This document shows, piece after piece, positions 53,350-63,481 of a stretch of 64,000 nucleotides of DNA. This DNA is from Escherichia phage KarlGJung, in sequence record MZ501089. One strand, 5' to 3'. Both the position numbers and the translations under genes were made by a program. The notes below the pieces were generated by a model. The model ran no database searches and was not told the DNA's origin. It was given only the letters and a program-made list of their open reading frames with translations. The stretch's first letter is position 1. Every line of letters starts with the position of its first letter.

Positions 53350-53819
53350 TTTAAACTCTTTCTAAGCTGCTTCTTGAATGAAGCTATTAATTGTGTTTTG
53401 GTGTCAGATTCATTATATTCAAATCCTCTTTGAAGCATCTCGGCCATCATTTCCTCTTTTCCTAAACGAGAAAATTCCTTTGATTTATCTCCAACAAAGT
53501 TAGGGTGAATATTATTTTGGGTGTAATCGGATTTTAAATAAGTAAGTAAATTTTCTAACCATTCAAGATAATCAACACCTTGTCCCTTTAAGCCAGAACG
53601 ATTAAATTTATGCTTCATTTGACCTTCTGCGGCATTGCATAGATTACAAAGCAATCCACGTACCTTTCCTGCTTTTGGTCCATTTAATTCATGGTCATGA
53701 TCAAGATGATTAGCTTGAACATCAGGATTTAGTTCTCGTTGGCAAATTAAGCATTTACCGTTTTGTGCATTATAAAATTTTTGTTTTTCTTCTTTGTATA
53801 ATTTGCCAGTCAATAACAT
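53346..53819 (-). CDS. 49: Endonuclease VII gp49 (Holliday junction resolvase)
   Basis: 157 aa MLLTGKLYKEEKQKFYNAQNGKCLICQRELNPDVQANHLDHDHELNGPKAGKVRGLLCNLCN... Confidence 0.85.
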   Translation of the reverse strand: MLLTGKLYKEEKQKFYNAQNGKCLICQRELNPDVQANHLDHDHELNGPKAGKVRGLLCNLCNAAEGQMKHKFNRSGLKGQGVDYLEWLENLLTYLKSDYTQNNIHPNFVGDKSKEFSRLGKEEMMAEMLQRGFEYNESDTKTQLIASFKKQLRKSLK

Positions 53820-53861
53820 AATAAAACCCTTACCTTAAATAGATAAGGGTATTTATTATTT

Positions 53862-54038
53862 TTAAGTATTGTAAAACATTCGATGCAATCGTTTATACTG
53901 TCGAATCATCTTTTTAGTAGGACGAGAATAAGTTCCTACGCAAGTGGTCATATGAGGGTCCGTAGAATGTCCTTTAATAAAAAGTTTCCAAACCTTACCG
54001 CCATTTAACTTTTCAGTATAAACCAATTCGGTTTTCAT
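53862..54038 (-). CDS. Hypothetical 58 aa protein whose C-terminus duplicates that of the next ORF (below track cutoff)
   Basis: Hand-translated MKTELVYTEKLNGGKVWKLFIKGHSTDPHMTTCVGTYSRPTKKMIRQYKRLHRMFYNT. Confidence 0.3.
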   Translation of the reverse strand: MKTELVYTEKLNGGKVWKLFIKGHSTDPHMTTCVGTYSRPTKKMIRQYKRLHRMFYNT

Positions 54039-54074
54039 TAAAATGTCCTGTCAGAAAAAGAATTTTGAGTTTTT

Positions 54075-54578
54075 TCAAGTATTATAAAACATTTGATGCA
54101 ATCGCTTATATTGCCGAATCTTTTGGTCAGAAAAAGAAATTTGAGTTTCAAGCCATTCAATGTACTCTGCGGCAGCTTGCATCAGGTTACCTTCATAGCC
54201 ATCGTTATTTTCTTGTGCAGCTAATTTAGCTAATGCGTATGAAATACGTTCACCTTGAAAACCGGCTTTAGGCTTCTGAACAACTTGATTAGTTCGCTCT
54301 ACAACTTCTTCAATTTCGCCATTTTCGACTGATTCAGTATTCCACAAGCACCAATACGTAATTGGCTTATCGTAGATGTTAATAATCTTTCCGTCGGAAA
54401 GTTCAATTTCAATAATTCCAGTGTCAGGCTCTATATCATCTTCACATTCTTTTACAAGTTCACGAACTTTAAAGACAGTACCTGCACTAAGTTCCGGCCA
54501 GTAATTACATAGCCCTGTATCAACACGATTAATTCTAAACCACTTATCTACTGTAATCATGTCCCATCTCCATATCAA
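54075..54578 (-). CDS. Hypothetical protein, 167 aa (49-nrdC interval; start uncertain)
   Basis: Track ORF; C-terminus KIRQYKRLHQMFYNT. Confidence 0.4.
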   Translation of the reverse strand: MIWRWDMITVDKWFRINRVDTGLCNYWPELSAGTVFKVRELVKECEDDIEPDTGIIEIELSDGKIINIYDKPITYWCLWNTESVENGEIEEVVERTNQVVQKPKAGFQGERISYALAKLAAQENNDGYEGNLMQAAAEYIEWLETQISFSDQKIRQYKRLHQMFYNT

Positions 54579-54855
54579 TTAAGTCATTTATCGTTGGTTC
54601 ATTATATACTGTTTCTTCATCAGTGTAAACCGGTTCTTCCGGCTCTGGCTCTACAGTTTCCCATCTAGCCGCCCACCAAGGTTTAACCCCGAAGCTTATT
54701 AAGTTCTTCATAATCAATCCAGGATTCTAATCCTGATGGCAAATCAGATTCAATTTCCCAAAGAAGCTCTTCAATTTTCTGAAGACGATCTAGTTCTTCG
54801 GCTGGAATAGTAACCATTGACGGAGCTCGTGATACATTAATATCGTAAATCATAT

Positions 54856-55071
54856 TTACCCCAATTTAACCATACAATCGCCGTATTTCCACTTAGAAAT
54901 AGACTTTTCACCATTAGAATAATAAACTTCGAGTTTAGCACGATTATTTTTAATTTGAATAACCTTGGCTGTCATCAAAGTTCCATACCCATAATAAACT
55001 GCAACTTCATCACCTACATATACCGCGCTTCCGCGGTAATCATGAATATAGTCAGTTCCTTCGAGCATCAT
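54856..55071 (-). CDS. Hypothetical protein, 71 aa
   Basis: Track ORF. Confidence 0.4.
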   Translation of the reverse strand: MMLEGTDYIHDYRGSAVYVGDEVAVYYGYGTLMTAKVIQIKNNRAKLEVYYSNGEKSISKWKYGDCMVKLG

Positions 55072-55577: not shown

Positions 55578-55967
55578 TTAATCCAAAATATTATTAGGCA
55601 TTGGTTGAACACTCACAAGTTCTTTAAAGAACTCAGTAGAGTCAGGCAATTTAACCATTTCCGGAGCATGCTTACTGAATTTATGTTTACATTGACGGCA
55701 TTTATATTCAAGCTCTGGTTTACGCCAGTTAATCAATTGAACTTGTTCAGTACCGCATTCAGGGCAATTAGGAACGTTTTTAGAAGCTCTTTCACGTCGT
55801 TCAACCATAGCCATAATAGCATCCCATGCTGGAGGTTTAAAATCTAAATCGTCGCAGCCGTGAATCTTTCCACGCATTTCCATATCATCTTCCTCACCAG
55901 CCATAATAATTTTAATTAAACTGGAATTACTTGAAGCTGCAATGTCTTCTAATAAACGCTTTTTCAT
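55578..55967 (-). CDS. Hypothetical protein, 129 aa, with CxxC...CxxC zinc ribbon
   Basis: Track ORF; CPECGTEQ...CRQCKHKF. Confidence 0.45.
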
Positions 55968-56893
55968 TTCAATACCTCAATAGCATTACGTAAACCATTT
56001 GCTTTTGCATTAAGAGCTTTTAACAATTTGGTGTGTTCTGCAATTTGGGCTTCAACTTCAGTCAAACGGGCATTGAGATATTCACGTTCTTCACTCAGAT
56101 TATCAACCTTTTCTACTTTAGGCTCTTTTACAACTGTCTTATATGTATTAGGGTTCTTCAGTTTAATTAGAATGCGTGAACTGTATAACATTGAACCATT
56201 ATCTTCGGTTTCGTCATACATTTCCACTACGTCCATAATTTTTAACATCATGCGGAGTTTATAAGACAACGAACGAATAGTTTTGTTGTGCTTATTAATT
56301 TCTTTAGCTGTCATGGTGCCAAGATTACGTGAGTAATAATAAGGAACCTGGATATTAATTAATACTGATGAACCACCTGGCTTGTGTGTTACTTCATCAG
56401 CAATAACCCAGTCCTTAACATGAACTGTATTTGTACGGTCATCGCCCGCGGTAAATAGTTTGCGAGCATGCTTAAAAAGCATATTCACTTGGGTATTGAA
56501 TTGACAAGCAAATTTATCAGCAAATTTAGTTTCAGGAATGGTAGATAACCAATCAGCCAAATGGGTCTTTTTAACATCGTTAACAATAGTAAATTGAACC
56601 AAATCGGTTATAGATGTCTCAGATTTAATGAAGCTCGGCTTCATAAAGTTTTTAATGTTATCACGAGCTACAGTAGAAGATAACATACGAGAACGTTTAA
56701 ACCATTCAAGCAAATTGCCTAACGAATGAGAATAAGCGTTTTGAGTATCTTTACAGATATGATTTTCCTGGCCAACATATTGAAGGAAATCACGAAGAAT
56801 ATTATTGATTACTGCTCTGTGTCCGATTTGATAATTACGGTGTTTAGTAATAAGACTGTCAAAATAATCAATATAATGTTTACGAGTTTTCAT
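55964..56893 (-). CDS. Paralog-family protein A (309 aa): unique N-domain plus C-terminal PVE/coiled-coil module
   Basis: Track ORF; tail [54 protein letters not shown]. Confidence 0.5.
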   Translation of the reverse strand: MKTRKHYIDYFDSLITKHRNYQIGHRAVINNILRDFLQYVGQENHICKDTQNAYSHSLGNLLEWFKRSRMLSSTVARDNIKNFMKPSFIKSETSITDLVQFTIVNDVKKTHLADWLSTIPETKFADKFACQFNTQVNMLFKHARKLFTAGDDRTNTVHVKDWVIADEVTHKPGGSSVLINIQVPYYYSRNLGTMTAKEINKHNKTIRSLSYKLRMMLKIMDVVEMYDETEDNGSMLYSSRILIKLKNPNTYKTVVKEPKVEKVDNLSEEREYLNARLTEVEAQIAEHTKLLKALNAKANGLRNAIEVLK

Positions 56894-56945
56894 GTTCTTC
56901 TCACTTGGTTAATGGTTTATACTCCGAGCCATCCTTGGCTTTAAA

Positions 56946-57947
56946 TTACTTAATTAACTGTAAAGCTTGTTCAAGACGATCCAGGCGATTAACAGATTCT
57001 TCCCAAATCCTTTTAGCCTGCTCATATTCTTTCTGTGCTTTATTAGAAATTTCTAGAACTTCTTTATAAGCTTTTTCTAGTGCAATAACTTCTGGACGAA
57101 TTTCTACCGGTTCAGGTGAATCGTCAAGATTATCCATTAGTTCCTCAAGGGTAGTTTCTTCTTTAGGAGTATTCACAATTTCATCACATTTTTGTTGATA
57201 AATTTCTTTATCAGTAGGTGAGTACGCGCACTTTACTTCACGAAGACTAATTACAATTTTATATCCTTCCCAACCACCCATATTTTTGAAAGGATATGTA
57301 TGAATACTTTTTACAGTTTCCATACAATCCAAAGCCGTCTCTAATTGATGAGTTATAGTGCTAGCAATTGAGAAAAATTTATTAATATTCTTTTGGTTAG
57401 CTTCTGGTGTAAAAAATTCGTAATTCACAAAAACAGCTACTTTATTTTTATCAAGCTCATATTCTTTTACGATAATCATATCAGAAGCCAAAGGATGAAT
57501 TTGACGATAATCGCCATAACATAATTTAGAAGCTGATTTTAGAATTTGTCCTTTAAAAAGTCTGAAATTACTAATCCAACGACGAGTAAAAATATTCTTA
57601 GGGTCTTCTTTGATATTAAGATGATAAGAATTAACATCACCGAACCAATTGTATCCTATTACACCTTTAGTTCGTTTAATTTCTTTCCCAAAATTACCAA
57701 GAATATCCCGATTAACCAAATATGAAAGAAGACGAGACCCTTTAAAGATTATCTTAATATCATCTTTATCTACACGGCTAGAAATTTCACGAACTTCATG
57801 AATAAATTTACTGGAAGAAACAATACTTGCATCAATACTGCTGAGCCATTGATTGATAATAGAAAGAACAGCGTTCTGACTAGACATGGGTTTAACTTTA
57901 TCATCAATAACGCTATTGAATGATTTGATATATTCGTTACGAGTCAT
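56946..57947 (-). CDS. Paralog-family protein B (about 333 aa)
   Basis: Track ORF 56946..57977 trimmed to ATG with SD GAGGAG; tail SPEPVEIRPEVIALEKAYKEVLEISNKAQKEYEQAKRIWEESVNRLDRLEQALQLIK. Confidence 0.5.
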   Translation of the reverse strand: MTRNEYIKSFNSVIDDKVKPMSSQNAVLSIINQWLSSIDASIVSSSKFIHEVREISSRVDKDDIKIIFKGSRLLSYLVNRDILGNFGKEIKRTKGVIGYNWFGDVNSYHLNIKEDPKNIFTRRWISNFRLFKGQILKSASKLCYGDYRQIHPLASDMIIVKEYELDKNKVAVFVNYEFFTPEANQKNINKFFSIASTITHQLETALDCMETVKSIHTYPFKNMGGWEGYKIVISLREVKCAYSPTDKEIYQQKCDEIVNTPKEETTLEELMDNLDDSPEPVEIRPEVIALEKAYKEVLEISNKAQKEYEQAKRIWEESVNRLDRLEQALQLIK

Positions 57948-57975
57948 ATTAATCTCCTCAGTAGAAAGTAAGAAC

Positions 57976-58005
57976 ATTATACCACATCCTTGTGGTAAAG
58001 TAAAC
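57976..58005 (-). promoter_or_regulatory. Early promoter (GTTTAC-N18-TATAAT) with spacer hairpin
   Basis: gtaaac 58000-58005, attata 57976-57981; spacer accacatccttgtggt. Confidence 0.5.
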
Positions 58006-59024
58006 TAGTTTAGTGCGTTTAGTGCGTTGTTCAGTTTAGAACGTTGCTTCGTGAGATTTTTGACTTTTTCTTGTGCTTTTTCTAGCATCTTTTCAGCTTC
58101 TAACACTTCATTGGTCGCTTTAACGAGTTCATCATCTACTGCCTTAAGGGACTTCTCAATCGCATCCGCGTGCCATTTTTCAACAGGTTTAAGACTCGGA
58201 TTTTCAATAGGAAGAAAATTCACTTTATTGAATTTCCATGCATCCTTATTACCTGAGCTATACATCCAAAATTTAGGATCGTTTGATGAGCAATTAGATA
58301 AATTTAAGTTATCTTGCACTTCCTGCTTTTTCTCTTGCGGGACTTCATCCTTTCTCAAAAAATCGTATTTAAATGAAACGATCATATCAAGTTCATACGT
58401 TGTTGTATGTTCCCAATTTCGCTCAAAATGAGGTAAAATCTTAGACTGAACAGCGGCAACAACATCCATATACTTAAATGCTTCTGTCAACTGTGATTTA
58501 AGGCATTCACAAATTGAAAGAGAATTTTTTGTATTAGGTTTAAAGCTAATTCGTGCAGTTCTATTATTTTCTTTTAATGGTCTTACTTCCATCTGAAGAG
58601 TATAACCATCAAATTTCAGGTTCTTTAAGTTAATGTCAGAACCTTTTAATCGACTAGCCGTCGACAAAATTTGCTTTAATTGTTTACGGAATAGAGCAAT
58701 AAATCTCCATTCAAGACGGTAATGATTTGGATTAAAAAATCCTGTTGATAAATCAACCTTACTCTGACCAACGCCTTGAACAAATAGAGGATTTTTATAA
58801 TCAATAGTTTTACAGAAATCGGTGAGCTGTTCGCGAGCAGTCATTTGCGTAATATATCCAGCTTTATCAAAATGTCGCAGCCATTCACTGCTATTCATAT
58901 ACTTAAAGTGAATGGAACTATTAACTCTATCAGGGTCTAAATTATTTTGGCACAAAAATGTCATAACATTACGGGTATAGCTGGCATTACGAACCATATC
59001 TTCAATTTGAGAACGAGTTTTCAT
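58005..59024 (-). CDS. Paralog-family protein C (339 aa)
   Basis: Track ORF; tail SLKPVEKWHADAIEKSLKAVDDELVKATNEVLEAEKMLEKAQEKVKNLTKQRSKLNNALNALN. Confidence 0.5.
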   Translation of the reverse strand: MKTRSQIEDMVRNASYTRNVMTFLCQNNLDPDRVNSSIHFKYMNSSEWLRHFDKAGYITQMTAREQLTDFCKTIDYKNPLFVQGVGQSKVDLSTGFFNPNHYRLEWRFIALFRKQLKQILSTASRLKGSDINLKNLKFDGYTLQMEVRPLKENNRTARISFKPNTKNSLSICECLKSQLTEAFKYMDVVAAVQSKILPHFERNWEHTTTYELDMIVSFKYDFLRKDEVPQEKKQEVQDNLNLSNCSSNDPKFWMYSSGNKDAWKFNKVNFLPIENPSLKPVEKWHADAIEKSLKAVDDELVKATNEVLEAEKMLEKAQEKVKNLTKQRSKLNNALNALN

Positions 59025-59032
59025 AGTGTTCC

Positions 59033-59935
59033 TTAAGATTTAAGTAAATCAACAATTTTAATTAATTTTTCACGCTCAGATTTAGCTTTACTACTCAATC
59101 CAGATAGTCTGAAAATTTCATCGTCATACTGTTGAATAGAAATATTTAGCTCTTCAATTTGCTTATTAAAATAATCAATTTGCTCAGAATGTTTTTCATT
59201 ACTGCGAACTGGTACAGGTTTTGTAGGCAATTTAGTTAAACTGGATTCATCCGGGCGATAAATTAAAATACAACTTGAACCAATCGGGCATTTAGCACCA
59301 GACACATATTCTAATGTTCCGGCTTCTTTTAAAACTTCAAAAGCTAAACAGAGATGATGCCCCATATTAACATAATCTGTAGAGCGAGCTCTGACGTAAT
59401 AATCATCGCCGCGAATACTAAATTTAAAGCATTTAAGGTCTTCTGTATTATTGGTCTTAAAAATCATTTGTTTATCTAGACCTTTAGCTAATCGAGCGCC
59501 TAATGCTAATAATCGTCGTTGATTTTCCCACAAATCTGCGATCATTTGGTCAAATGATAATTTCGGCATTAGTCGACCATAAAGGTCATATCCTTTATTA
59601 TAATTGCGAAGAATTTCACTTGCATTAATACGAGACAATGCTCCAATTTTATTAAGGGCTTTCATAATGCGATTAGATAAACCCATTCCAGACCCGTTTG
59701 TTCGCTGTAAATGTTTTTCTAATCCAAATCCAATATCAACTTTAAATTTATCTAAAATTTCAGCATGAACATCTCTGTCAATAACATTCAAATCCAAAGT
59801 TGGGTTAAATCTATGAAAAAATTTATCTGGCTCTCCACGACGAAGTACAGTCCATTCATTCAATTTTTTATTAACTAAAGATTTAATTACTGCATTGACA
59901 TTATTAATTACTACTGACATATTTTCCTCACTCAA
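59033..59935 (-). CDS. Paralog-family protein D (300 aa)
   Basis: Track ORF; tail PTKPVPVRSNEKHSEQIDYFNKQIEELNISIQQYDDEIFRLSGLSSKAKSEREKLIKIVDLLKS. Confidence 0.5.
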   Translation of the reverse strand: MSEENMSVVINNVNAVIKSLVNKKLNEWTVLRRGEPDKFFHRFNPTLDLNVIDRDVHAEILDKFKVDIGFGLEKHLQRTNGSGMGLSNRIMKALNKIGALSRINASEILRNYNKGYDLYGRLMPKLSFDQMIADLWENQRRLLALGARLAKGLDKQMIFKTNNTEDLKCFKFSIRGDDYYVRARSTDYVNMGHHLCLAFEVLKEAGTLEYVSGAKCPIGSSCILIYRPDESSLTKLPTKPVPVRSNEKHSEQIDYFNKQIEELNISIQQYDDEIFRLSGLSSKAKSEREKLIKIVDLLKS

Positions 59936-60337: not shown

Positions 60338-60392
60338 AATAATCTCAATTAAAAGGGCTTAGAACCATTATACCATCCTTGGTATAAAGCGG

Positions 60393-60920
60393 TTATGCGA
60401 GTACCGTCTTTAACCGTTCTTCAAACTTCCGAAGAGTATTCTGGCGTTCGGCTCTTTGCTTTTTGTAAGTTTCAATACGCTCTGAAATGAGAGTGTATCG
60501 TTCATTTACTGATTCTTTCATAAAATCAGGAATTTCACGAGAAGCTTTAATCTCATTAAATTTATCAATAACAGCTTGCTCTTCAGCAATTAAGTTATCA
60601 TACATCAAAATATCTTTCTTGATGAACTCAATATCTTCTTGAGTTACACGAGATAACTTAGATGCTTTATCCTTTTTGTACTGTTCATTAGTATCACGAG
60701 ACCAGTGTAATGTACGATTTTTATTCGTATTCTTATAAATTTCTACAATACCAATCTCATCAATAATAACGATCCAATTCCAACGGGATTTGTAAATTTG
60801 TCCTCCATCAACTGTGATTTCACCTCCGATTGAGATGTCATTAAAGAACTTGCTTTGTGCTTCAGATTTAAATTTACCATCGTTGTAATTTACCAAGTTG
60901 AAAATATCTTTAGCGTTCAT
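60393..60920 (-). CDS. Hypothetical protein, 175 aa, with coiled-coil C-terminus
   Basis: Track ORF; ATG start; SD GGAGG. Confidence 0.45.
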   Translation of the reverse strand: MNAKDIFNLVNYNDGKFKSEAQSKFFNDISIGGEITVDGGQIYKSRWNWIVIIDEIGIVEIYKNTNKNRTLHWSRDTNEQYKKDKASKLSRVTQEDIEFIKKDILMYDNLIAEEQAVIDKFNEIKASREIPDFMKESVNERYTLISERIETYKKQRAERQNTLRKFEERLKTVLA

Positions 60921-60948: not shown

Positions 60949-60978
60949 ATAATACCACAGAGGAACAGTCTTGTAAAC
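60949..60978 (-). promoter_or_regulatory. Early promoter (GTTTAC-N18-TATTAT)
   Basis: gtaaac 60973-60978, ataata 60949-60954. Confidence 0.5.
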
Positions 60979-60980
60979 CA

Positions 60981-61295
60981 CTAAAAGAAACTTCTTTCAC
61001 AATTTTTTCCACTGAACCAAGCGCTCACTGCTTTCTTAGTCTCAGGAGCAGTGTTATCCATAAACCATTCAAAGGCAGCCTTTTTATGATTCTGGAGGGC
61101 TTCTCGGGCTTTAATCTGTTCACGGTCTATTAACACTAACATATGAGCCTTTCTTGTCACCAAGGGCTTCTTATGATTTTTTGAATACTCCCAATCATTT
61201 GTCCATCGCATCGTTGTTGCGAACTGAAATACTGCTTCTTTAATTTTAGTTTCGTAAATTTCACGAGCCTTTGAGTATAACATCATTACCTCCAT
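60981..61295 (-). CDS. Hypothetical protein, 104 aa
   Basis: Track ORF; ATG start. Confidence 0.4.
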   Translation of the reverse strand: MEVMMLYSKAREIYETKIKEAVFQFATTMRWTNDWEYSKNHKKPLVTRKAHMLVLIDREQIKAREALQNHKKAAFEWFMDNTAPETKKAVSAWFSGKNCERSFF

Positions 61296-61384
61296 TTACC
61301 AGTTTAATTCTAGTCATCTTTTTGATGGCAGTCCATATAATCTATTTCTGAACTGCCTTTTTATCTTAGAAGGCCTCTTATGAA

Positions 61385-62353
61385 TTATTTCAGAAGAGTA
61401 ACCTCAGCGATTTCTTCCCAACCGTTTTTGTCGGTCATAATAAAGTCAGCAAGATAAAGAGCAGTACGCAGTGAAACATTGCGTAAACGATTAACATTGA
61501 CTTTCATCCATGATAATGCTTTATAAGTTTCTTCATCAGAAAGACCACGCTTTTGCATCATGTCAGTTGAAAGAATAACATCTTCAACCCTGACCATAAT
61601 TTCTTCATTAGTGTGAACACCCAAATCCAAATAAACTGAGCGGGACACTAATGCTTGTAAATGTGGAGCAAGTTTAGTACCACGGTCTAATTCGCGGTCA
61701 ATGTCAACGTTTGTGATAAAAACAATCGTTCCTTTAAATTCAAACTCACGCTCAATGCCTTTTTCTTCTAAGTAAGAAGATGCGGTGCTCCAGCAGACTT
61801 TACGGGTCTCTCCAGTGTCCAGAGCAGCTTTCAGAAGATTAAGAATGTCCATATCAGAGAAAACATCCACATCATCAATCAAAAGGACAGAATTCTCTTC
61901 ACGATTATTCCAAAGCTGCTCATAAAGACCAATACCAGAGATTTTACCATTAATGCTTTTATATTCAATGTATCCAATATCATTTGCTTTATTTAAAGCT
62001 TTATCTAAAGAATACGTTTTACCAATACCTGCTGCACCAGAGATAATTAATGAACGAATGTTTCCGTTAATAATACCATTCGTCATCATTCCCATAACAT
62101 TAAATCTTTTATTAATGCGGGTTTTCATATCTTCATACGATTCTTTAACTTCTTCAACTTTTACACCATCATATGAAATGTCTGATTTGTAAACCCAAAC
62201 ACCGCGACGTTTACCGTCAATTTCAACAAAAACTTTACCATCTCCTTGTGCATCTACCGGAGCATTATCTGGGAACCATTCGCCTAAGAGCTCAAAAGTT
62301 CCAGAGATTTCTTTACCGAAGTAGATACCCTTATTGATAGTTACAGTTTTCAT
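61385..62353 (-). CDS. P-loop NTPase (AAA-like), about 322 aa
   Basis: Track ORF 61385..62365 (TTG) trimmed to ATG; Walker A GAAGIGKT, Walker B VLLIDDVD. Confidence 0.55.
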   Translation of the reverse strand: MKTVTINKGIYFGKEISGTFELLGEWFPDNAPVDAQGDGKVFVEIDGKRRGVWVYKSDISYDGVKVEEVKESYEDMKTRINKRFNVMGMMTNGIINGNIRSLIISGAAGIGKTYSLDKALNKANDIGYIEYKSINGKISGIGLYEQLWNNREENSVLLIDDVDVFSDMDILNLLKAALDTGETRKVCWSTASSYLEEKGIEREFEFKGTIVFITNVDIDRELDRGTKLAPHLQALVSRSVYLDLGVHTNEEIMVRVEDVILSTDMMQKRGLSDEETYKALSWMKVNVNRLRNVSLRTALYLADFIMTDKNGWEEIAEVTLLK

Positions 62354-62387
62354 TTTATTCTCCAAATCCGTATCAGTTGATAGTTGT

Positions 62388-62446: not shown

Positions 62447-62466
62447 AGGGAGCCCGAAGGCTCCCT
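62447..62466 (-). terminator. Intrinsic terminator (UUCG hairpin plus U-run)
   Basis: agggagcc-cgaa-ggctccct; mRNA continues tttttatttc. Confidence 0.6.
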
Positions 62467-62467
62467 A

Positions 62468-63481
62468 TCATTTATAATAACTTCGGTGGTTTTCAAGATA
62501 GACCTTCTCAAGGAAGTCATCCCAGAAACTCATGTCTACTGTTTTAGGCATACCATTCTTAGAAGCTTCAGTAGATGCTGCTTCTACTTGATCGACCACA
62601 TCTTCCAAAAACTCTTGAACTGTTTTAAATGGATGTTTACCCAACTTCACGTCGAGAATAAATGGAGCATCTTGGAGTGGATAAATCAAGTCGCCAGTTT
62701 TGTAAATTTCCAATAGTTGAAGTCCACCACGACAAGCATGACTTAGTGCTTTCCAATCAATACCTTCATTAGCTTCGGCCTTACGAGCACGTTCACCATA
62801 TTCAGCATCTAATTTGTTCAGTGACTGCTTAAGCTCAATAAGAGAAAGCGTTGTCTGATATTTACGACCCAACACTGTGTAAAACGTCTGTGGGCCTGTT
62901 TTCTCATGATTATGGAACACCCATTCACAGAATTCGTTTTCTGGAAGACGATGCTTAATATCTTCAACTTTAGTACGACGCTGCTTAATGGAACCGTCTT
63001 CTTGGTAATCAACCCATTGCTCAGGGATTTGATTAACTACTTTCAATACATCACGTAATGCAGCCAAACGAGAACCCTTGACACCGTATTTAGAAGCTTG
63101 CTTGCGGACATATCCTAAATAGGATTTCATGTTAGTCGTATAAAAACGAGAACGGTTGTCTTGAATAAACTTCCACACATCAGGCAAATCAGATTTAACC
63201 ACTAGTTCAGGTGGAGTGTGAAGCATATCCAATGCTACAGTTTCACCATCTGCTGCTAATTTAAAGAAATATTTAAGACTGTATAGTTCATGGTCAATAT
63301 CATCTTTAGTGTTTTTAGATGATGTGTTGTTAGTGTTTTTACTCATGTGCTCTTTGACATTTCCGACAAGAATATCGCGAGCAGGAGGAACAAAGATTTC
63401 TTTAAAATCTACATCAGATTCTGGGGTAGAAGTTCCATAAAGATGACTACCAAAATAGCTTTTCATTACTGTTTTCATCAT
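62468..63481 (-). CDS. Predicted pol-beta-superfamily nucleotidyltransferase, 337 aa
   Basis: N-terminal YFGSHLYGTSTPESDVDF (G-S ... D-x-D signature). Confidence 0.5.
   Translation of the reverse strand: MMKTVMKSYFGSHLYGTSTPESDVDFKEIFVPPARDILVGNVKEHMSKNTNNTSSKNTKDDIDHELYSLKYFFKLAADGETVALDMLHTPPELVVKSDLPDVWKFIQDNRSRFYTTNMKSYLGYVRKQASKYGVKGSRLAALRDVLKVVNQIPEQWVDYQEDGSIKQRRTKVEDIKHRLPENEFCEWVFHNHEKTGPQTFYTVLGRKYQTTLSLIELKQSLNKLDAEYGERARKAEANEGIDWKALSHACRGGLQLLEIYKTGDLIYPLQDAPFILDVKLGKHPFKTVQEFLEDVVDQVEAASTEASKNGMPKTVDMSFWDDFLEKVYLENHRSYYK

Follow-up and report, generated by a model that had tools for sequence, protein, structure and literature searches.

Dsr1 is a SIR2-domain defence protein that depletes NAD+. 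DSR2, another SIR2-type NAD+-depleting defence protein, is blocked by the SPbeta protein DSAD1, which binds its sensor region. For Dsr1, Srikant et al. found that a T4 deletion clone was unable to infect ECOR17 or MG1655 carrying ECOR17 dsr1, and that infection of Dsr1-bearing E. coli was restored by T4 nrdC.5, an early, non-essential accessory gene (PMC9391042). The sensor domain of Dsr1 is reported to recognise the phage major capsid protein (2026 preprint, 10.64898/2026.01.04.697583). In addition, promoter-early/stem-loop (PeSL) cassettes are reported to drive modular shuffling in the hyperplastic regions of T4-type phages (Arbiol 2010, Comeau 2014; PMC2839356, PMC4122927). Here, we analysed a 64,000-nucleotide stretch of Escherichia phage KarlGJung (sequence record MZ501089; hereafter the window), in which four consecutive minus-strand genes, nrdC.3 to nrdC.6, form a tandem array. 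The original prediction, made from the DNA letters alone, had read them as a constant tail, for oligomerisation or targeting, that delivers unrelated N-terminal warheads. On the basis of sequence profiles and predicted structures, they are instead diverged full-length tandem duplicates of one family. Whereas databases list T4 NrdC.3/NrdC.4 (PF26897, phrog_1435), NrdC.6 (PF26899, phrog_2257) and DUF7235 as separate families without assigned function, the three merge here into a single superfamily whose members share one architecture, which is a modest addition. The locus itself is not a discovery, as its genes have long stood in the T4 annotation as 'hypothetical proteins' and the counter-defence role of one of them has already been published.

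Homology of the four array proteins

By its sequence, the source stretch is a Tequatrovirus: it matched genomes of this genus along its entire length, was 97.5% identical to Tequatrovirus RB14 at the nucleotide level over 5.9 kb, likewise to vB_EcoM-BECP11, and 743 phage records matched. The gene order nrdC.3, nrdC.4, nrdC.5, nrdC.6 is that of the RB14 and T4 annotation, and the array lies between nrdC/nrdC.1/nrdC.2 and nrdC.7-nrdC.11, as in the Tequatrovirus T4 gene set. Synteny and sequence identify the array genes as the already known nrdC.3-nrdC.6 of T4, in direct orthology. The open reading frames (ORFs) were all present on the minus strand, and the expectation of a tandem array of paralogs in the hyperplastic early-gene region held. 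Both nrdC.3 (55964-56893, 309 residues, placed by synteny with RB14 nrdC.3) and nrdC.4 (56946-57947, 333 residues, syntenic in RB14 and T4) belong to PF26897/phrog_1435; they matched phrog_1435 end to end (E = 4.8e-115 and 1.3e-165, respectively), PF26897 being a precomputed label on the homologues. The nrdC.5 protein (58005-59024, 339 residues), orthologue of the T4 anti-Dsr1 gene, matched DUF7235 (PF23882) from residue 1 to residue 339, covering profile positions 1-307 (E = 1.4e-123), and its 412.7 bits compare with a Pfam gathering score of 30 bits. The most divergent paralog, nrdC.6 (59033-59920, 295 residues from the ATG at 59920), matched phrog_2257 (E = 1.5e-152; residues 6-300), and its homologues are labelled PF26899. 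Identity to the T4 proteins was 61% for nrdC.3, 89% for nrdC.4, 91.4% for nrdC.5 and 93% for nrdC.6.

Contrary to the statement that the N-terminal parts have no obvious similarity, BLASTP was enough to align the first 225 or so residues of nrdC.3 and nrdC.4 (225 aligned, E = 8.5e-6, 24% identity), and all four proteins proved to be collinear homologues. Profiles were compared between orthologue groups built from Dhakavirus JS98, Gaprivervirus VR26 and Mosigvirus MM02/NHEP11, plus database homologues. With hhalign, the nrdC.3 and nrdC.4 families were homologous over the N-terminal ∼220 residues (97.7%, E = 2e-12), and the nrdC.3/4 profile matched nrdC.5 collinearly as far as the C-terminus (73%, E = 3e-5; 67-333 versus 51-339). 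Further links were provided by bridging sequences, whose alignments were nearly full length, tails included. The Klebsiella Marfavirus protein P0235 matched nrdC.3/4 (96.4% probability) and nrdC.5 (96.6%), whereas P0232 (96.5% and 96.8%) and P0237 (93.3% and 97.7%) matched nrdC.5 and nrdC.6, respectively, and P0239 also linked nrdC.6 to nrdC.5. A MAFFT alignment of the four families was collinear, with the common motifs SGxLSRxxAKxIL..F.K, N...ILxxAxRLxxGD and LxxALxxM, a nearly invariant Pro ahead of the tail (P-V) and KLxxALxLLK at the C-terminus. Two of the proteins start with MKTR, as had been noticed, and nrdC.4 starts with MTR.

Predicted structures pointed in the same direction. Since the homologue set of nrdC.5 was too shallow (nearly all sequences at least 82% identical), nrdC.4 and nrdC.6 were modelled in its place. 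The AlphaFold2 (AF2) model of nrdC.4 (mean predicted local distance difference test score, pLDDT, 84.8) comprises an N-terminal helical bundle, an alpha/beta core, a disordered linker and a 48-residue C-terminal helix (285-332); that of nrdC.6 (mean pLDDT 77.7) has tail helices at 247-276 and 282-299. The order of elements is identical in both models: the N-terminal helices are followed by three short helices and a beta-hairpin, then by a long helix and another beta-hairpin, and finally by the disordered linker and the terminal helix. Predicted secondary structure agreed in 71% of the aligned columns, compared with 42 ± 5% (maximum 56%) in circular-shift controls. The nrdC.4 model matched NrdC.6 of JS10 in Foldseek (E = 1.8e-4, prob 1.0), and both models found the same uncharacterised T4-like phage proteins of 300-335 residues in BFVD (IME523, PM2 and Acj61), nrdC.4 additionally matching proteins of Mineola, Cronus, PS2 and Aeh1. 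Searches of the PDB with the three family profiles returned only designed helical repeats or noise, and when all members were scanned against Pfam and NCBIfam, DUF7235 was the sole domain to recur consistently; no catalytic family in Pfam, NCBIfam or the PDB was matched by the array proteins.

At the C-termini, the Pro motifs and the heptad helices were confirmed. One Pro motif is present per protein (KEPKVE, SPEPVE, SLKPVE and PTKPVPV), and each Pro-containing linker is followed by a heptad helix of 47-56 residues; in the nrdC.4 and nrdC.6 models the motif sits in a low-confidence linker ahead of the terminal helix. Hydrophobicity in all four tails has a period of 3.45-3.50 residues (z = 4.0-8.4 against shuffles), a/d positions are hydrophobic in 9/14 to 15/16 cases, the registers are uninterrupted, and all four share one register at the C-terminus. 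If a coiled coil is defined as 4-5 or more unbroken heptads that are predicted to be helical and whose a/d positions are hydrophobic, the tails qualify by period, by a/d hydrophobicity and, for nrdC.4 and nrdC.6, by AF2 helices, oligomerisation itself being predicted. The same was not true of the 'fifth protein' downstream (60393-60920), which is nrdC.8 in the RB14 and T4 annotation: its supposed coiled-coil-like tail lacked heptad periodicity (p = 0.25), and it was rejected as a member, having no profile similarity to the family and being missed by the superfamily hidden Markov model (HMM).

The superfamily is small. A HMMER search of 1.84 billion representative proteins with the superfamily profile found just 27 members, several of them intermediate; full-length members had 288-345 residues and the others were fragments or chimeras. 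The family is confined to a single syntenic locus, from nrdC to nrdC.10/nrdC.11, in T4-like phages, mostly Straboviridae. Marfavirus EI and Kanagawavirus IME523 carry a single copy, Dhakavirus JS98, Gaprivervirus VR26 and Mosigvirus three, and Tequatrovirus four, or three (LYE-01, without nrdC.4). This spread of copy number at a single locus is the pattern expected of tandem duplication and divergence.

Anti-defence function and proposed mechanism

The original prediction had also proposed candidate host-takeover or anti-defence effectors. For nrdC.5 this is published, as far as T4 is concerned (PMC9391042), and with nrdC.5 one of the outcomes named in advance as refuting the original prediction, well-characterised homologues that have a role assigned, came about in part; for nrdC.3, nrdC.4 and nrdC.6 the literature search found no work. 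The window nrdC.5 is orthologous to T4 NrdC.5 by identity, by its position at the same locus and by its full-length DUF7235 match. The remaining 9% of residues differ from the T4 protein, and an anti-Dsr1 role is presumed for the window protein by identity only. Near the locus, gp49.2 inhibits OLD (PMC13096335); in T6 it is found in the region upstream of nrdC (gp49.1 to nrdC.1). At 53800-55071 of the window, as in RB14, small ORFs of the RB32ORF081c/082c type replace 49.3 of T4. Because T6, T4 and RB14-like phages differ there in this way, the whole 49-nrdC-nrdC.x stretch behaves like a variable counter-defence island.

The early promoter that had been noticed within the array was confirmed. 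It lies on the minus strand between nrdC.5 and nrdC.4 (58004-57976; TTTACT-N17-TATAAT with an extended -10 TG; scan score 10/12 plus TG) and embeds a hairpin at 57997-57980 (stem TACCAC/GTGGTA). It is conserved in T4 and RB14, with varied forms in VR26, JS98 and MM02. The consensus of PeSL elements for the T4/PST pair is TTTACW-N17-TAYWAT (PMC4122927), and the window element resembles T4-type PeSL cassettes in this consensus, in the hairpin inside it and in its position among accessory genes of a hyperplastic region.

Most probably, the paralogs act as oligomers that inhibit host immune sensors stoichiometrically, and NrdC.5 would be specific for Dsr1. We infer such a mechanism because the proteins have no catalytic signature, are expressed early and share a head-linker-heptad architecture, and because DSAD1, a phage blocker of a SIR2-type NAD+-depleting defence, offers a working analogy for NrdC.5; DSAD1 targets DSR2, not Dsr1, and the presumed likeness is one of mechanism only. 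Taken as a whole, it seems reasonably probable that the array consists of early, oligomeric, full-length paralogs, that each is a non-enzymatic stoichiometric binder of a host immune sensor, and that PeSL elements aided their duplication. The genes would be early, transcribed at least in part from PeSL-type early promoter cassettes. In each product, an N-terminal helical bundle would precede a small alpha/beta core (hairpin-helix-hairpin); next would come a disordered linker, variable in length and containing Pro, and then a heptad helix of ∼50 residues, through which the proteins would most likely dimerise or form higher oligomers. Made ahead of the late structural proteins, each paralog would occupy or lock that part of a host immune protein which serves as its sensor. 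The array would have grown by duplication and divergence, probably aided by recombination at the repeated promoter/stem-loop cassettes, and separate copies may cover separate host sensors.

Several points weigh against this proposal. The direct link between nrdC.6 and the nrdC.3/4 profile is weak (E = 1e-3 locally; 53% and E = 2e-5 globally), and their relationship depends on bridging sequences and on predicted rather than solved structures. Experimental support is limited to nrdC.5, for which no published binding or mechanism was found in the literature searched. Oligomerisation of the tail is deduced from heptad periodicity alone; the helix might pack on the globular part, and monomer AF2 models cannot show oligomerisation. 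A part of PeSL elements in the duplication is argued by analogy with cases in the literature, and the nrdC.6-nrdC.5 gap measures 8 nucleotides with no cassette between the genes.

It is also conceivable that NrdC.5 alone is an anti-defence protein and that the others serve host takeover, nucleic-acid binding or regulation, or are dispensable duplicates that drift. Copy number is indeed variable, nrdC.4 is missing from some Tequatroviruses, and no experiment in the literature addresses the other three genes. On the other hand, every orthologue group, in several genera, retains an intact ORF with conserved motifs, which argues for a retained function, and other anti-defence genes neighbour the locus. 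A weak match between nrdC.3 and the SAM-like N-terminal domain of tyrosine recombinases (E = 0.08 in Pfam and 9e-4 in NCBIfam) could be cited in favour of such another role, but it was rejected as chance because it was sub-threshold and seen in just 1 of 31 members. On balance, a restriction of the anti-defence role to NrdC.5 appears doubtful. A bolder version of the inhibitor hypothesis, in which the array is a battery of oligomeric decoys grown by PeSL duplication, each plugging the trigger-binding sensor of a different defence (such as Dsr1 or Avs7-like sensors with other effectors) with a tail-terminator-like alpha/beta core that mimics virion proteins, would be improbable. The claim that the alpha/beta core imitates a structural protein, with a fold like that of a tail terminator (gpU-like), and that the proteins are early decoys for sensors of conserved virion proteins, seems decidedly improbable.

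Finally, the constant-tail model, in which one Pro-motif and coiled-coil module for oligomerisation or targeting carries unrelated, exchangeable N-terminal warheads, retains a very slight chance: the tails look alike by eye, pairs with nrdC.6 have somewhat higher identity in the tail (15-21%) than in the core (4-14%), and a few tail-only chimeric database ORFs exist (P0241, P0230 and P0236), but the N-terminal parts are homologous and collinear, the tails are no better conserved than the rest, and the chimeras are products of deletion, duplication or fragmentation of the same genes. When the last 62 residues per orthologue group were compared by hhalign, nothing significant was found (E of at least 1e-3, the best match being 20% over 16 columns), and end-anchored ungapped BLOSUM scores reached z values of only 0.9-3.6 relative to shuffled sequences, in which heptad periodicity is lost as well. 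Thus, the tail alone cannot establish homology, and the C-terminal alignment that had been suggested as a check gave no significant similarity by itself. Among the four window paralogs, the N-terminal helices were 14-28% identical, the core 4-22% and the tail 10-29%; in the pair nrdC.3 and nrdC.4, conservation was lowest in the tail (10% versus 21-28% in the N-terminal part). Judged by sequence, the tail is no constant module and diverges like the rest of the protein, and the array does not have the constant module plus variable warhead of a polymorphic effector or toxin-like system. The superfamily search revealed no established family that pairs the tail with another domain.

With regard to the unusual database sequences, P0241 is a 173-residue metagenomic protein that joins ∼120 unrelated residues to an NrdC.5 tail (window 58035-58166); many Tequatrovirus NrdC.5 proteins have exactly this tail, and over 44 residues it matches the window copy at 98% identity. 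Because its N-terminal part was found neither in the window nor in any of 50,697 phage records, it was taken as an isolated chimera and rejected as evidence of tail modularity. Both P0230 and P0236 are fragments. In P0056, nrdC.5 and nrdC.3 are fused in frame (nrdC.5::nrdC.3) and nrdC.4 is deleted (mapping to window 55967-56713 and 58212-58592), and P0058 is a 378-residue NrdC.6 of Shigella phage Sf25 with an internal duplication of ∼83 residues (mapping to 59036-59920).

Gene starts, further cassettes and neighbouring genes

The start of nrdC.4 at 57947, giving 333 residues, is preceded by a GAGG Shine-Dalgarno sequence. It was preferred because the alternative upstream ATG at 57977 falls within the promoter, and the 343-residue ORF beginning there was rejected. 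For nrdC.6, the reading frame extends up to a TTG at 59935 (300 residues); a start at the ATG at 59920, which has its own GAGG Shine-Dalgarno sequence, gives 295 residues. M6 and S7 of the longer ORF are invariant among homologues, and by sequence the true start is most likely the ATG at 59920.

Compared with published PeSL cassettes, the window has a degenerate copy at the nrdC.4|nrdC.3 junction and none at nrdC.6|nrdC.5. The degenerate PeSL-like element (56912-56940, minus strand) reads ATTTAA..CCAAGGATGG..TATAAA, and its CCAAGGATGG spacer motif is common to the intergenic cassettes of MM02, JS98 and VR26. Such cassettes recur among the accessory genes of the window (56912-56940, 57976-58004, 60360-60385 and 60949-60977), several of them carrying CCAAGGATGG; the copy upstream of nrdC.7 looks truncated.

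Two allele classes of nrdC.3 occur in Tequatrovirus. The window allele, of the RB3/RB14 type, is ∼60% identical to the T4/T2/PST allele and ∼75-78% identical to Mosigvirus homologues (77% for the Mosigvirus homologue compared). Because it is nearer to Mosigvirus while the flanking nrdC, nrdC.1 and nrdC.8-nrdC.11 are 97-100% identical to T4, a replacement of the nrdC.3 allele between genera is suggested by these sequences. The adjacent nrdC.2 (55578-55967, 129 residues) overlaps the nrdC.3 start region by 4 nucleotides at its stop and has a CxxC...CxxC zinc-ribbon signature, scoring 26.5 bits with Zn_ribbon_8, under the Pfam gathering cut-off of 34.4; T4 NrdC.2 has 104 residues and is 76% identical. 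On the other side, a seg-like homing endonuclease lies between nrdC.9 and nrdC.10 in RB14 (L001 8866-9585) and is absent from the window, where the gap is ∼90 nucleotides (61295-61385). The nrdC.10 protein (61385-62365) gave weak AAA and novel-STAND-NTPase matches, with a P-loop around residues 100-130, and nrdC.11 (62468-63481) carries the annotation nucleotidyltransferase. These two genes are separated by a strong bidirectional terminator-like hairpin (62447-62466).

Implications for T-even phages

What is new here is that three families are unified under one architecture and that, at one and the same locus, the copy number of the family has risen from one to four. This makes NrdC.3, NrdC.4 and NrdC.6 candidates against defence systems, especially Dsr1 variants and Avs7/Dsr1-type sensors. 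The globular head, flexible linker and heptad tail also provide a structural frame for how NrdC.5 blocks Dsr1. If the improbable decoy-battery version were true, tandem duplication at PeSL cassettes would broaden the range of defences that T-even phages evade.

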